A DNA stretch of 64,000 nucleotides from a phage. Every line of letters starts with the position of its first letter. Position 1 is the stretch's first letter. Below are positions 50,931 to 54,596 of the stretch, one piece after another. The notes beneath the pieces were generated by a model. That model searched no databases and was not told the origin of the DNA. It was given only the letters and a program-made list of their open reading frames with translations. The translations under genes were made by a program, and so were the position numbers. The stretch lies in the sequence record PZ452594.1; one strand, written 5' to 3'.

Positions 50931-51562
50931 TCAACTACCTCAATATCATAAACTTTAAATGTTCCAAATGAATCGTGTAATTTTTCTTTTGAAATAGAAG
51001 TTATTCTATACTTTCCAATTGGAATCATCCATTCTTGTTCATGTACAATCATCATTAAGTTATCAGTACGCTCTGAATCTAATCCATCAGTGTCTTCATA
51101 CGTGTACTTAAACTCAGTATTAGGAGAAGAAAGTATAATATCGCTGATATGGTCAGAGTAATTAAAAGCTTTATCAGTTTTTAAACGAAGTATTGTTTCA
51201 GTGAAATATTCAGCATAAGAAAAAGAACACGCTGTATGCAAACTAGTAGTAAATGAATCTACCCTGTTCGTTGAAAACACTTCTCCAACCTGTAAATCTT
51301 TAATAAGTTCTTTTGTCGATTTTGATATACCACGATATAATTGATAAGGTGATTTAGTTAAATGCTTTTTAATGATTTTATTCAATTGCCGATGAAGAGC
51401 TTCATTCTTTTTAGCTTCCATACATTGCCAAAGAACAGACTGCTCAAAGTCAGTAAATTTTTCACAGACTTTTTTATACATATCATATTGAAAATCAACG
51501 CTTTCAGCTTTTATAGATAACTGTTCAACATCTGCAAGATTAATAATCATGATAGCCTCCAT
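50927..51562 (-). CDS. modB: ADP-ribosyltransferase ModB
   Basis: 211 aa paralogue of ModA with EQEWMIP motif. Confidence 0.8.
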   Translation of the reverse strand: MEAIMIINLADVEQLSIKAESVDFQYDMYKKVCEKFTDFEQSVLWQCMEAKKNEALHRQLNKIIKKHLTKSPYQLYRGISKSTKELIKDLQVGEVFSTNRVDSFTTSLHTACSFSYAEYFTETILRLKTDKAFNYSDHISDIILSSPNTEFKYTYEDTDGLDSERTDNLMMIVHEQEWMIPIGKYRITSISKEKLHDSFGTFKVYDIEVVE

Positions 51563-51576
51563 ATACTTCAGAAGCT

Positions 51577-51606
51577 ATCATATCATCGTTAGAAAGGAAA
51601 GTAAAC
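51577..51606 (-). promoter_or_regulatory. T4-type early promoter (GTTTAC-18-TATGAT)
   Basis: GTTTAC 51601-51606, weaker -10 at 51577-51582. Confidence 0.4.
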
Positions 51607-51617
51607 AACTTTTTGAA

Positions 51618-51800
51618 TTATTTTGCCCAGGGAGCCCAAGGCGGAGGGTCAAGATGGTATGAAGCTAGTTCTTCTAGAAGAGCATCTGGGGCTTCAATTC
51701 CATAATTCTGTAATACTATACGGTACTCTTTCTTATAATCGCTAGAATCATTCTGGATATTCGTAGAATGATTATCTTCTAACATCTCAAATAAATCCAT
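51618..51800 (-). CDS. hypothetical protein
   Basis: 60-aa acidic ORF. Confidence 0.4.
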   Translation of the reverse strand: MDLFEMLEDNHSTNIQNDSSDYKKEYRIVLQNYGIEAPDALLEELASYHLDPPPWAPWAK

Positions 51801-51808
51801 ATTAATTC

Positions 51809-52279
51809 CTAGCGATAAAAACCAAATTGACGATTAGCTTCAATAATCTTTCTTTCTTCTTCTGACATTCTCCAGCGTAGTCCAACGTCAAAATGAGCCC
51901 AGACCATCTTAACAAATGCATTTATATCTTTAATATCTTCAATAATGAATGTTTTACTTTTAGAAGGTTGACTCGCTAATTTAACTTTATCATCTTCAAA
52001 CAGGTCAAAAAGACCATATTCGTGAGCTCTTTTATAGCCTTTAATAGTTAAAGCTTCAGAAGAAGAAAATGGTGAATCTGTATTCTGCAAAATATCTTCA
52101 GTATGCTTTATAACTAGAATAACATTTTCTGGATATTTTCTTTCTTTTATATCTTTAATTAAAATATCCGGATTTTCTGCTAAAGGAATAATTAATGAGC
52201 ACTTTTTATCAAGTGTATTTACTGATTTACCTTCTTTAGACATAAATTCTATTGAATAATGTTTTGCTACTTCAATCAT
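51809..52279 (-). CDS. hypothetical protein
   Basis: 156-aa ORF. Confidence 0.5.
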
Positions 52280-52432
52280 GTGATTTCCTCTTGCCTACTA
52301 ATGGGCCGTCAGGAATTTTGTTTTCCTGAATGTATTTCTCATTTTCTTCCATCATTTTAATGCCAATTTTAAGAAGCAAATCCATTGCTTCATTTGCTTT
52401 AGCTTTAGCCTCTTCTAACGTCATATCTCTGT

Positions 52433-52636
52433 TCATGATTTATCCCCATAGATGTCTCTCATCAATTTAAGCGCTGAGCGTTCTAATTTCTTTTCTTTCT
52501 CAACGCTAATCATTGATTTCATCCATTCTTCTGATTCGTTCTGCATTTCTTTATTTGCCTGTTCAACCCAACCATCATCAATGTACATTGAGTTTGGTCT
52601 ATTGAACCATTCAAACATTTTCTTCAGAACTTTCAT
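52433..52636 (-). CDS. hypothetical protein
   Basis: 67-aa ORF. Confidence 0.45.
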
Positions 52637-53108
52637 TTGTTTTACCTAAAACGATAGTATGGACACCGTCAAATTCATGAATTTTTAGCAAATTAGGATT
52701 TAAATTATTCCATAAAGAGGTAATAAAATATGATAGCGCACTTTCGTCCGTAATTATAAATTTATTTCCTTTATCTATTTTCCAATCATATATTGAATCG
52801 TATGAATAGAAGGATAACGGTTTATTATTATAGTATGCTTCAGCAACATCAATATAGTTAGATTTAGTAAATGCTTGAATTGCCATAAATGGAGAATTTT
52901 GTACAGTTTCAATAATTCCGATCTTTTTAAGTTTTATTTCAACATCTTCTGGAACTGGCATTGAAATAAAATCTTCTACTAGATACATGTCATTGTCATA
53001 TCTTTTATCAATCATTACTGCTACTGTAATTGGAACATCCTTGACAAACGCCATACTAATACTATTGATAGACATTTCAAACAAAATCGCTTCCATAATT
53101 TTCCTCAA
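52611..53108 (-). CDS. hypothetical protein
   Basis: 165-aa ORF. Confidence 0.5.
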
Positions 53109-53446
53109 TCACAAGATGTAGATGAACAACTAGAATCACAAGAACTTCCACATGAATCGCCCGTCCATACATGAACAGGAACATTAGTATCATATGAATC
53201 AGAACTAGACTGTGTATTCTGTGCATTAGATGATGTAGTAGGTACTGACCAGCGCCAAGGATTTTTATAATATTCTTGGGCTTCTTCATAAGTCATAGTA
53301 ACTGCTTCTACTGTTCCATCTCCCATATAAACATATTCAACTACAGTTAAAGGAATGTAGTCATTTGAAATAGGAACTACACCTTCTCCGGGAGTTGTAG
53401 AGAAAAAATCCGTAAAGAAACTTTTAAACCAATTAAAGATAAACAT
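53105..53446 (-). CDS. hypothetical protein with Cys/Ser-rich C-terminus
   Basis: 113 aa ending [18 protein letters not shown]. Confidence 0.5.
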
Positions 53447-53652
53447 TACAAAAAGCCTCTTTTGAATTCGACTTGCTTTTCGCCATAATCATATCGAATC
53501 TCTGCATTAAATTCGACAGAACCATCTGCATACATCATAAATGAATGCACAACAACTTCTGTAGACCATGGTTGTAGTTCATATTTCTTCATTACATGTC
53601 GTGAAATGATAATATCTAAATCTTCATTCGGTTTAATCCAACGATTTAACAT
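53446..53652 (-). CDS. hypothetical protein
   Basis: 68-aa ORF with SD GAGGAGAGCGCT. Confidence 0.5.
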   Translation of the reverse strand: MLNRWIKPNEDLDIIISRHVMKKYELQPWSTEVVVHSFMMYADGSVEFNAEIRYDYGEKQVEFKRGFL

Positions 53653-53678
53653 AGCGCTCTCCTCTATAAGATAATTTT

Positions 53679-53708
53679 ATTATACCATACTCATTTTGGA
53701 AAGTAAAC
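53679..53708 (-). promoter_or_regulatory. T4-type early promoter (GTTTAC-18-TATAAT)
   Basis: GTTTAC 53703-53708, TATAAT 53679-53684. Confidence 0.55.
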
Positions 53709-53717
53709 CATTTAAAT

Positions 53718-53743
53718 GAAAAAAGGACTCCCGAAGGAGTCCT
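53718..53743 (-). terminator. intrinsic terminator after soc
   Basis: Hairpin GGACTCC / CGAA / GGAGTCC plus U-run; identical to the hairpin at 273-292. Confidence 0.6.
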
Positions 53744-53748
53744 TGAAT

Positions 53749-53994
53749 TTATTCACCAGTTACTTTCCACAAATCTTCATTTGCAGCAATCCATTCAGTA
53801 CGTTGATTTTCTTCATATACTGTAGAATATGCTGCTTTTTCTGAAGGGAATGTCTGGTAATGTGCACCAGAAATTTTGTGAACGTCAGAATAAAGAGGGA
53901 AAGCTACGGAAATTTCCTTTCCTTCAATTTTCTTATTTCCATCTAATTTCTGCTCAAATGTTTTGATATTAACATAACCGCGAGTACTAGCCAT
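53749..53994 (-). CDS. soc: Soc small outer capsid protein
   Basis: 81-aa ORF MASTRGYVNIKTFEQ... matching T4 Soc by recall. Confidence 0.9.
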   Translation of the reverse strand: MASTRGYVNIKTFEQKLDGNKKIEGKEISVAFPLYSDVHKISGAHYQTFPSEKAAYSTVYEENQRTEWIAANEDLWKVTGE

Positions 53995-54024
53995 GTAATT
54001 CTCCTTTTATTTAAATTACATGAT

Positions 54025-54032
54025 TATTTATA
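54025..54032 (-). promoter_or_regulatory. late promoter TATAAATA for soc
   Basis: Exact TATAAATA (minus) about 30 nt upstream of the soc ATG. Confidence 0.6.
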
Positions 54033-54077
54033 ATAAATTCTCGCGGCTTTTAAGTCGTCGTTTATTTAAACGAGCTA

Positions 54078-54596
54078 TTAATAGCCTCGGTCTTGACGAG
54101 CGAAATTTTCAGCATTTTTCAGATAATAAAGTTTAAATATTTCTTCAGCTGACATTCCAAGAGCAATAAATTTATTCATGAAAAAGTGAAATTGGTCAAT
54201 CAGTTCAAATTTAATTTCAAGCTGATCTTCAGGAGATAAGTCTTGAATTTTCTTGGATTGCATTTCAGAATAACGTTTCTTCCAAGGTTTCCATACGGCA
54301 GAAGCTTCTTTTTCACCATTACTCATACCACCAAGAGAAGTATATAGCTCGCGAGTTTCATCTGCGATATAATCGTCTTGGTTTCGCAACCAAGCAAGAA
54401 CTTCTCCTGCAGTTTCAAGTGAATCAGGATGACGATTTGTTTCTGGTTTATCATTAGCCAAACGAATCTGTAAATGCCGCTGCATATCAAGCATAACCTG
54501 CAGTGGGTCAATATTGTGCATAATATTCTCAGCATATGCACGATTTGCTTTATCAACACCTTCGATCAAATGAGCGCATTCATTAAAGTAAGCCAT
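54078..54596 (-). CDS. 56: dCTPase / dUTPase (gene 56, MazG-like)
   Basis: 172 aa from internal ATG with SD AGGAAAATA; track N-terminal extension rejected. Confidence 0.8.
   Translation of the reverse strand: MAYFNECAHLIEGVDKANRAYAENIMHNIDPLQVMLDMQRHLQIRLANDKPETNRHPDSLETAGEVLAWLRNQDDYIADETRELYTSLGGMSNGEKEASAVWKPWKKRYSEMQSKKIQDLSPEDQLEIKFELIDQFHFFMNKFIALGMSAEEIFKLYYLKNAENFARQDRGY

Follow-up and report, generated by a model that had tools for sequence, protein, structure and literature searches.

We find that the interval between modB and soc in the window (the whole 64,000-nucleotide stretch of phage DNA analyzed, record PZ452594.1) is, with near certainty on sequence grounds, this phage's copy of the T4 early cluster mrh.2-mrh.1-mrh-srh-modA.4-modA.3-modA.2 (51618-53652, minus strand), and that one of its products, Mrh.1, ends in a conserved Cys/Ser-rich tail that we tentatively interpret as a docking element. 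We put the probability of this overall explanation, which joins the identity of the cluster, the conservation of the tail, and an inferred docking role, at roughly 85%. As judged from its sequence, the window derives from a T4-like phage of the genus Tequatrovirus. The locus itself is already known and represents one more copy of a cluster that was annotated in T4 decades ago.

Gene content of the modB-soc interval

Seven closely packed open reading frames (ORFs), all on the minus strand and each preceded by a Shine-Dalgarno-like sequence, occupy the interval between modB and soc. They correspond one-to-one to annotated T4 genes, with amino acid identities of 94-98.5%.

51618-51800, minus strand: modA.2, 60 aa; 98.3% identical to T4 ModA.2; phrog_1647
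51809-52279, minus strand: modA.3, 156 aa; 94.2% identical to T4 ModA.3; Pfam T4_MRH, E = 3e-38
52272-52436, minus strand: modA.4, 54 aa; 96.3% identical to T4 ModA.4 (AF158101); phrog_2681
52433-52636, minus strand: srh, 67 aa; 97% identical to T4 Srh; phrog_2441, E = 2e-40
52611-53096, minus strand: mrh, 161 aa from ATG or 165 aa from an upstream TTG; Pfam T4_MRH, E = 8e-41
53105-53446, minus strand: mrh.1, 113 aa; 96.5% identical to T4 Mrh.1; Pfam DUF7206 (PF23836)
53446-53652, minus strand: mrh.2, 68 aa; 98.5% identical to T4 Mrh.2; phrog_1873

The T4 annotation (AF158101) maps onto the block gene for gene, and every family assignment is backed by Pfam and PHROG matches. Across the whole 2.5 kb, the DNA is 97.6% identical to phage AR1 and 96.9-97.0% identical to T4. 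Genes, order, strand, overlaps, and the modB and soc flanks are the same as in the T4 modA.2-mrh.2 cluster (AF158101.6/NC_000866, 13198-15232), and the Mrh.1 tail is identical in the two phages; the window differs from T4 by a few amino acid substitutions and by the absence of segF between soc and gene 56.

The original prediction, made from the DNA alone, had named both flanking genes correctly: the product of modB shares 97.6% identity with T4 ModB, and that of soc hits the Pfam Soc model with E = 2e-55. The ORFs and the Cys/Ser tail that it reported are likewise real and lie at the positions given. An additional ORF, thought to be unannotated and to encode about 57 aa at about 52262-52435, is instead modA.4, which is annotated in T4 (AF158101) and encodes 54 aa at 52272-52436. 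The view that small ORFs of unknown function fill the block holds for most of them, although mrh and srh have published genetic phenotypes and modA.3 is a paralogue of mrh. Overall, the earlier interpretation is thus partly supported: orthologues exist for all seven ORFs, with published phenotypes only for mrh and srh.

Both mrh and modA.3 score far above the curated cutoff of Pfam T4_MRH (PF24070; phrog_1234), at 139.7 and 131.2 bits, respectively, against 24.4. ModA.3 and Mrh share 24% identity (pairwise E = 3e-4), which identifies modA.3 as a paralogue of mrh at the level of protein families, although a phenotype is on record for mrh alone. The Mrh protein of the window is 95% identical to T4 Mrh and 98.8% identical to that of AR1, and it is nearest to the wV7/AR1 allele. 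According to PMC6070864, which cites Frazier & Mosig 1990 and Mosig 1998, mrh and srh both influence late transcription in rpoH mutants as well as under heat shock at 42 °C; Mrh is accordingly described as the "modulator of rpoH." The T4 annotation postulates that Srh is a decoy of host sigma-32; the similarity of Srh to residues 244-279 of Escherichia coli RpoH is weak (29% over 38 aa, E = 0.002 for a single pairwise comparison). ModA.2 carries a conserved MDLF motif at its N terminus and DPPPWAPW at its C terminus, and its orthologues match Pfam PF26838. The modA.2, mrh.2, and modA.4 genes are found in 993, 743, and 588 phage records, respectively. The end of mrh.2 and the start of mrh.1 share the sequence ATGA, in which the stop and start codons overlap, and the two genes are translationally coupled.

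Other searches of the block added little. Sequence and profile searches of the PDB with Mrh.1, Mrh/ModA.3, Mrh.2, Srh, ModA.2, and ModA.4 gave nothing below E = 0.7, NCBIfam and PADLOC scans of all seven proteins gave nothing meaningful, and an Rfam scan of the region returned no RNA families. An AlphaFold2 model of Mrh from a 16-sequence alignment had a pLDDT of 46 and is unusable for mechanism.

Transcription, expression, and fitness

Three candidate transcription signals frame the block.

53679-53707, minus strand: early-promoter-like site; TTTACT, 17-nt spacer, TG-TATAAT; 10 of 12 positions match
51577-51605, minus strand: early-promoter-like site upstream of modB; TTTACT, 17-nt spacer, TG-TATGAT; a consensus match alone
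53723-53744, minus strand: intrinsic terminator hairpin directly after soc; 9-bp stem, UUCG loop, T-run

The site at 53679-53707 would be the promoter of all seven genes, mrh.2 to modA.2. The terminator sets soc apart from the block, and the site upstream of modB, which is built like T4 early promoters (a G-TTTAC -35 hexamer and an extended -10), marks its downstream boundary. In T4, supplements 4 and 6 of PMC9697503 class the RNAs of all seven genes as early. Supplement 4 of the same work lists the Mrh.1 protein as "NA," that is, unclassified, in its proteome time course; a small number of tryptic peptides predicted from the Mrh.1 sequence may be the cause.

The T4 region is described in the literature as dispensable in the laboratory. 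In supplements 1 and 15 of the CRISPRi-ART knockdown screen (PMC11879866), mrh.1 is rated "Semi-Fit" (0.79, p = 0.069), and its six neighbors in the block are rated "Not Fit." As given there, knockdown in DH10B has no fitness effect for the block genes save the marginal one for mrh.1, which is among the five T4 genes with no known function at all that the genome-wide screen flagged as fitness contributors. Nothing in the block is flagged in the main text of the HIDEN-SEQ preprint. In the literature that we searched, no phage paper names mrh.1 or modA.2 in its main text, and none describes the conserved Mrh.1 tail.

Conservation of the block

The block had been called variable, and comparison of synteny overturns this description within the genus. 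At least 80% of the 2.5 kb is present at about 90% DNA identity or more in 498 of the 527 matching phage records, and the order of the seven genes is unchanged at every Tequatrovirus locus examined (T2, SH-2, Sf24, Bas43, and the IMG/VR relatives L007 and L009). Gene content is constant within Tequatrovirus and differs only between T-even genera, of which the others carry a reduced version of the block. The trio of mrh.1, modA.2, and an MRH-family gene is retained between soc and a Mod ADP-ribosyltransferase gene in the remotest relatives as well.

A hypervariable accessory region, in which cassettes differ from phage to phage, would account for several observations made chiefly across genera: mrh is absent from relatives L013-L017, additional ORFs of 81-84 aa are present, and PS2 retains mrh.1 only. 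Within the genus, divergent alleles occur (315 records at 60-80% identity for Mrh and 128 for Mrh.2), the Sf24-type Mrh.1 is a mosaic, and the adjoining gap between soc and gene 56 holds segF, two small ORFs, or nothing. The near-constant coverage among Tequatrovirus records, the single gene order, and the persistence of the mrh.1/MRH-family/modA.2 core nevertheless make such a region improbable.

The Mrh.1 family

Mrh.1 matches DUF7206 (PF23836) with 103.2 bits (cutoff, 25.6) over residues 3-113, that is, up to its last residue. In the searches made here, the family is found only in T-even-like phages and always at one genomic position, downstream of soc and mrh.2 and upstream of an MRH gene and the Mod ADP-ribosyltransferases. 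Like other members of DUF7206/phrog_2031, the Mrh.1 of the window has an N-terminal helix, an EYVYMGDG motif, and a C-terminal S-C-D...S-C-D end. The protein can be divided into an N-terminal amphipathic helix, an EYVYMGDG β-hairpin followed by a helix, a hypervariable, disordered Ser/Thr-rich linker, and a strictly conserved Cys-bearing end rich in Ser, Asp, Gly, and Tyr. The middle is Ser/Thr/Asn-rich in T4-type proteins, whereas in other genera it is Lys/Arg/Glu-rich and then runs into a hydrophobic "IVVTAAAVSSW" segment.

In the AlphaFold2 model of Mrh.1, a β-hairpin lies between a short helix and a second helix, and the tail beyond is disordered; pLDDT is 75-86 at roughly residues 31-60 and below 50 for most of residues 70-113. 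The model is weak overall, with a mean pLDDT of 58, a pTM of 0.28, and about 30 confident residues. Homology between the hairpins of Mrh.1 and Mrh.2 (VVHSFMMYADGSVE in the latter) was considered and rejected (hhalign probability 0.3%, E = 0.22). Library-wide phmmer searches with Mrh.1 returned, beyond the family, compositional matches to long Ser/Thr-rich proteins alone. We also note that mrh.1 can be lost, because it is frameshifted in at least one natural isolate, Bas43/TadeuszReichstein.

The C-terminal tail of Mrh.1

All four cysteines of Mrh.1 fall within its last 18 residues.

53108-53161, minus strand: codons of the Mrh.1 tail, residues 96-113, with Cys99, Cys103, Cys107, and Cys112

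That this Cys/Ser-rich end is unusual had been noticed beforehand, and family comparison upholds the observation: the tail is real, conserved across the protein family, and functionally constrained. The family-wide end motif is S-C-D-S-x(3-8)-[SG]-C-[DN]-COOH. A C-terminal C[DN] occurs in 113 of the 120 DUF7206 family clusters, as it does in the window; the seven clusters without it are fragments of 53-73 aa, except for one out-of-frame sequence of 141 aa. Exactly two cysteines are present in the last 25 residues in 107 of the 113 clusters, and an aspartate directly follows the penultimate cysteine in 98. Across the family, the last 20 residues consist of 45% Ser, 17% Asp, 15% Gly, 10% Cys, and 8% Tyr. 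The T4-type phages are the four-Cys outlier, in that other DUF7206 members have two tail cysteines and the other two T4-type positions are replaced by Ser or Tyr in other genera.

The tail is the most conserved part of the family, and codon usage points in the same direction. Over 21 tail codons, L014 and L017 differ by eight synonymous changes and one nonsynonymous change, and the serine codons mix TCN and AGY. Because synonymous changes prevail, we conclude from this comparison that the tail is under selection at the protein level. The opposite view, that the tail is functionless low-complexity sequence left by slippage or created by a miscalled frame, could draw on its masking by the BLAST low-complexity filter and on an alternative-frame ORF (53077-53289) that is open across the tail and annotated in one record. 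A tandem-repeat scan of the region, however, found no repeat in the coding DNA of the tail, and the amino acids are kept across genera despite synonymous changes and changes of serine codon class. The terminal C-[DN] is moreover present in all 113 sequences that are neither truncated nor frameshifted, and the Pfam model extends to the last residue of Mrh.1. These comparisons effectively refute the reading, to which we give almost no credence.

Possible roles of the tail

The four cysteines of the T4-type tail could form a self-contained site for one metal ion within a single chain, similar to a metallothionein or zinc knuckle (C-x3-C-x3-C-x4-C). All four lie within 14 residues, with none elsewhere in Mrh.1, and all are kept in every Tequatrovirus sequence examined; across the family, four is the commonest total of Tyr plus Cys over the last 25 residues (61 of 113), a further hint of four ligands. 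Four ligand cysteines are not conserved among homologues, however: exactly two are found in 107 of 113 clusters, and these two are conserved family-wide, whereas every other genus has Ser or Tyr in place of the remaining two. The tail has neither CxxC nor CxxH spacing, is predicted by AlphaFold2 to be disordered, and matched no solved metalloprotein. We regard such a site as unlikely.

A second alternative is that the tail is a substrate for posttranslational modification, either as a RiPP-like Ser/Cys/Gly core or as a site of phosphorylation, thiolation, or ADP-ribosylation by host or phage enzymes. Microcin B17 McbA is a Gly/Ser/Cys-rich RiPP precursor, and Mrh.1 resembles it in having a Ser/Cys/Gly-rich C-terminal segment after a conserved N-terminal part. 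The Ser/Cys/Gly/Asp-rich composition of the tail, the "leader-like" N-terminal region before it, and the ADP-ribosyltransferase genes located a few genes downstream in all examined genomes would all fit. Unlike McbA-type precursors, however, Mrh.1 has no modifying enzymes in its neighborhood, and its tail is acidic and conserved rather than variable; typical RiPP precursors show the reverse of what is seen here, where the putative core varies less than the middle of the protein. At the examined loci, mrh.1 is not adjoined by any cyclodehydratase, YcaO, radical-SAM, or kinase gene, and the ±5 kb or so around it in T4, T2, and distant relatives contain no gene for a RiPP-type modifying enzyme (YcaO/cyclodehydratase, LanM, or radical SAM). 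The tail also lacks arginine, whereas T4 Alt, ModA, and ModB are Arg-specific. Modification of the tail therefore seems very improbable.

We favor, tentatively and at less than even odds, the reading of the tail as a thiol- or metal-dependent docking motif. Mrh.1, like its neighbors, would be an early host-takeover protein, and its disordered tail would act as a short linear motif in which two thiols, together with Asp and Tyr, bind a ligand. The likeliest ligand would be either a metal ion that the tail coordinates jointly with a second chain or with a host partner, in a "clasp"-type site, or a host protein bound directly. Intermolecular cysteine metal sites are exemplified by the CD4-Lck zinc clasp and the Rad50 zinc hook. 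In these sites, as in Mrh.1, each chain carries two cysteines on a flexible stretch, and four ligands would be reached only with a second chain or partner. The likeness goes no further: Mrh.1 has no CxxC spacing and is not related to them in sequence or structure. Two cysteines spaced by 4-10 residues do not form a canonical metal-binding signature. The docking reading is also weakened by the only marginal effect of mrh.1 knockdown (p = 0.069), the low overall quality of the AlphaFold2 model, the "NA" entry of Mrh.1 in the T4 proteome time course, and the frameshifted mrh.1 of Bas43. The conserved tail nonetheless offers a precise handle, namely two cysteines and a terminal Asp, on the function of an orphan T4 early gene.

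A bolder and decidedly doubtful extension of the docking reading is that Mrh.1/DUF7206 represents a new class of small phage effectors, in which the two-Cys acidic end clasps a host protein through a metal or thiol; the partner would be, for example, a defense or stress-response factor. The corresponding motif is S-C-D...S-C-D-COOH, with Tyr and Cys interchangeable at positions further upstream. If true, this extension would account for the fact that, within the block, mrh.1 alone makes a detectable, albeit marginal, fitness contribution in CRISPRi-ART.

Identity of the block

The block between modB and soc is a T4 gene cluster that is already known and annotated. The ORFs that the original prediction placed there are real, with seven closely spaced on the minus strand at 51618-53652. 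Neighboring ORFs have overlapping start and stop codons or lie 8 nt apart, and a Shine-Dalgarno-like sequence stands 5' of each. A megablast search with window positions 51400-53900 against 50,697 phage records returned 527 matching records, nearly all from Tequatrovirus, 498 of them with query coverage of 80% or more; phage AR1 is the top match (97.6%), and T4 matches at 96.9-97.0%. Gene for gene, the region agrees with the T4 reference AF158101.6 (modB, modA.2, modA.3, modA.4, srh, mrh, mrh.1, mrh.2, and soc), and the AR1 annotation has the same layout as T4 across the block. The ≈57-aa ORF described as unannotated is present, but it encodes 54 aa and is modA.4, annotated in T4.

Proteins of the block in window order, all minus strand: length; identity to the T4 protein; phage records matched (tblastn, E ≤ 1e-3)
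ModA.2 (51618-51800): 60 aa; 98.3%; 993 records
ModA.3: 156 aa; 94.2%; 598 records
ModA.4 (52272-52436): 54 aa; 96.3%; 588 records
Srh: 67 aa; 97.0%; 603 records
Mrh (52611-53096): 161 aa; 95.0%; 656 records
Mrh.1 (53105-53446): 113 aa; 96.5%; 502 records, tail masked by the low-complexity filter
Mrh.2 (53446-53652): 68 aa; 98.5%; 743 records

Each protein is assigned to a separate PHROG. In the family scan, Mrh and ModA.3 both matched Pfam T4_MRH and Mrh.1 matched DUF7206; a sequence-level search of the PDB found no relative of any of the seven. Srh shows only weak similarity to residues 244-279 of sigma-32. AR1 also annotates a plus-strand ORF inside srh, AR1_027, which is without a database match.

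In dozens of deposited T4-like genomes, modA.2, modA.3, and modA.4 (51618-52436) are mislabeled [quoted passage not shown] The error was propagated by name from the symbol of the T4 gene modA, which is unrelated to molybdate transport.

The Mrh.1 tail is a conserved motif of DUF7206

The Cys/Ser-rich tail is likewise a real feature, the 113-aa ORF ending exactly as originally predicted. All four Cys residues of Mrh.1 are confined to this C-terminal tail, which is identical in T4. A profile search yielded 119 clusters of DUF7206 proteins, whose named members and long contigs all belong to T-even-like phages of Escherichia, Salmonella, Enterobacter, Serratia, Cronobacter, or Edwardsiella. Their alignments contain an N-terminal helix, M-[IF]-x-[WF]-[LI]-K-x-[LF]-F, and the motif E-Y-x-Y-M-G-D-G, which is invariant or nearly so; a hypervariable middle and then the tail follow.

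Over 120 family clusters, 113 end in C-[D/N] (SCD in 102); the other seven are fragments of 53-73 aa, except for one 141-aa out-of-frame sequence. Exactly two Cys residues lie within the last 25 positions in 107 of the 113, and 98 have exactly two in the entire protein. The two are spaced 4-10 residues apart, with modes at 6 and 8, and the penultimate Cys is followed by Asp in 98/113. Across the family, the last 20 residues consist of 45% Ser, 17% Asp, 15% Gly, 10% Cys, and 8% Tyr. T4-type Mrh.1, with four tail Cys residues, is the outlier; one of its extra Cys residues aligns to the Tyr of a widespread S-S-Y-D-S-G unit, and Tyr and Cys together most often number four within the final 25 positions (61/113). 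The tail is the defining, selected motif of DUF7206 with a conserved core of two Cys, not four, which is the one small addition that the locus offers.

Tail codons change synonymously (TGT/TGC, GAT/GAC, and TCN/AGY) while the amino acids are kept; between two loci of other genera (L014 and L017), the 21 tail codons differ at eight synonymous positions and one nonsynonymous position. The pattern shows purifying selection at the protein level rather than DNA slippage. Together with the conserved C-[D/N] end in 113 of the 120 clusters, it refutes the view that the tail is meaningless low complexity.

An AlphaFold2 model of Mrh.1 built with 61 sequences predicts a helix at residues 3-15, a hairpin (34-40 and 46-52), and a second helix at 53-61, with pLDDT of 75-86 over roughly residues 31-60; residues 70-113 mostly fall below 50, that is, are predicted to be disordered. 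Mrh.1 would combine a small folded core with an invariant terminal motif, the two joined by a linker that is variable and disordered; such an anatomy suggests that a flexible tether displays a short linear motif.

The tail offers two conserved thiols, with Asp usually next to each on the C-terminal side, as well as a free C-terminal carboxylate and upstream positions at which Tyr and Cys interchange. These features are best fit by ligand binding through the thiolates, in which the tail would either share a metal with a second chain or host partner or dock directly. We hold this reading tentatively, at a probability of roughly one in three. A self-contained site formed by four Cys, as the T4-type tail might allow, is less well supported, being contradicted by the conservation of just two Cys family-wide. 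The same holds for a RiPP-like or modification role, since no neighboring enzyme occurs at the loci examined.

An alternative-frame ORF (53077-53289, minus strand, 70 aa, rich in His, Leu, and Val) lies inside mrh.1 and the start of mrh and reads through the DNA that encodes the tail. Phage TadeuszReichstein, in which a frameshift divides mrh.1 in two, has this ORF annotated as CDS bas43_0140. The ORF is probably spurious.

Variation within and between genera

The block was predicted to be variable. Within the Tequatrovirus loci examined, gene content and order are constant, the same seven genes recurring in the same order in T2, SH-2, Sf24, Bas43, and two close IMG/VR relatives (L007 and L009); content changes between genera. 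Variation within the genus is of the allele type. For Mrh, 315 records lie at 60-80% identity to the window allele and just 61 at 95% or above, and Mrh.2 has a second allele at ≈62% identity. The presence of two or more divergent alleles of mrh and mrh.2 in Tequatrovirus amid neighboring genes that are >90% identical suggests allele shuffling or diversifying selection. The Mrh of wV7 is 100% identical to the window allele. The Sf24-type Mrh.1 (164 aa; L005, 2447-2941; P0003; 17 member sequences) is a mosaic in which an RB69/JS98-like middle (EEIIRQPEKAGNVG...AVSSW) sits between an N-terminal half and a four-Cys tail that are both T4-type, which is evidence for inter-genus recombination inside mrh.1.

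Between genera, mrh is absent from JS98-like and related loci (L013-L017), an additional ORF of 81-84 aa is present in L013-L016, and Serratia phage PS2 keeps mrh.1 as its sole block gene. The remotest metagenomic relatives retain soc, DUF7206, (MRH), ModA.2 (PF26838), and the Mod ADP-ribosyltransferase. ModA.2 is the widest-spread gene of the block, its records including Klebsiella and Enterobacter phages. Its middle varies, but both ends are sharply conserved, with MDLF[ED][ML] at the N terminus and ASY..DPPPWAPW.K at the C terminus. In sequence it resembles a docking peptide with two ends.

The gap between soc and gene 56 (53995-54077; gene 56, 54078-54596, encodes dCTPase) is a local insertion/deletion hotspot adjoining the block. 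It holds no gene in the window or in AR1, the homing endonuclease gene segF in T4, and two small ORFs in T2, SH-2, and Sf24. In the T2 RefSeq record (L003, NC_054931, 4385-5006), modB is broken into ORFs of 142 and 42 aa, through either a frameshift or deletion or else a sequencing error.

Transcription and expression

Scans of the block region for Rfam families and tandem repeats found neither. Three candidate transcription signals were located:
53744-53723, strong terminator hairpin (UUCG loop, T-run), after soc
53707-53679, early-promoter-like site (-10 element TG-extended), just upstream of mrh.2
51605-51577, second early-promoter-like site, preceding modB

In T4, all seven genes have RNAs of the early class; among the proteins, ModA.2 was detected as "late" and ModA.3, ModA.4, Srh, Mrh, and Mrh.2 as "middle," and Mrh.1 was left unclassified in the time course (PMC9697503, suppl. 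4 and 6). The block probably acts as an early host-takeover operon. In a CRISPRi-ART screen, modA.2, modA.3, modA.4, srh, mrh, and mrh.2 scored "Not Fit" and mrh.1 "Semi-Fit" (0.79, p = 0.069), and its authors deem mrh.1 one of five T4 genes of purely unknown function worthy of follow-up (PMC11879866, suppl. 1 and 15). The literature searched yielded no main-text discussion of mrh.1 or modA.2.

The mrh.2 stop and mrh.1 start overlap at 53446 (ATGA, 1 nt in Tequatrovirus; up to 11 nt in other genera), and the two genes overlap or abut within ≈10 nt in most genera examined, which suggests that they are translationally coupled and possibly form a complex. The pairing is not universal, since mrh.1 directly follows soc at one locus that has no mrh.2-like gene (L021) and different ORFs lie upstream of it at another (L022).
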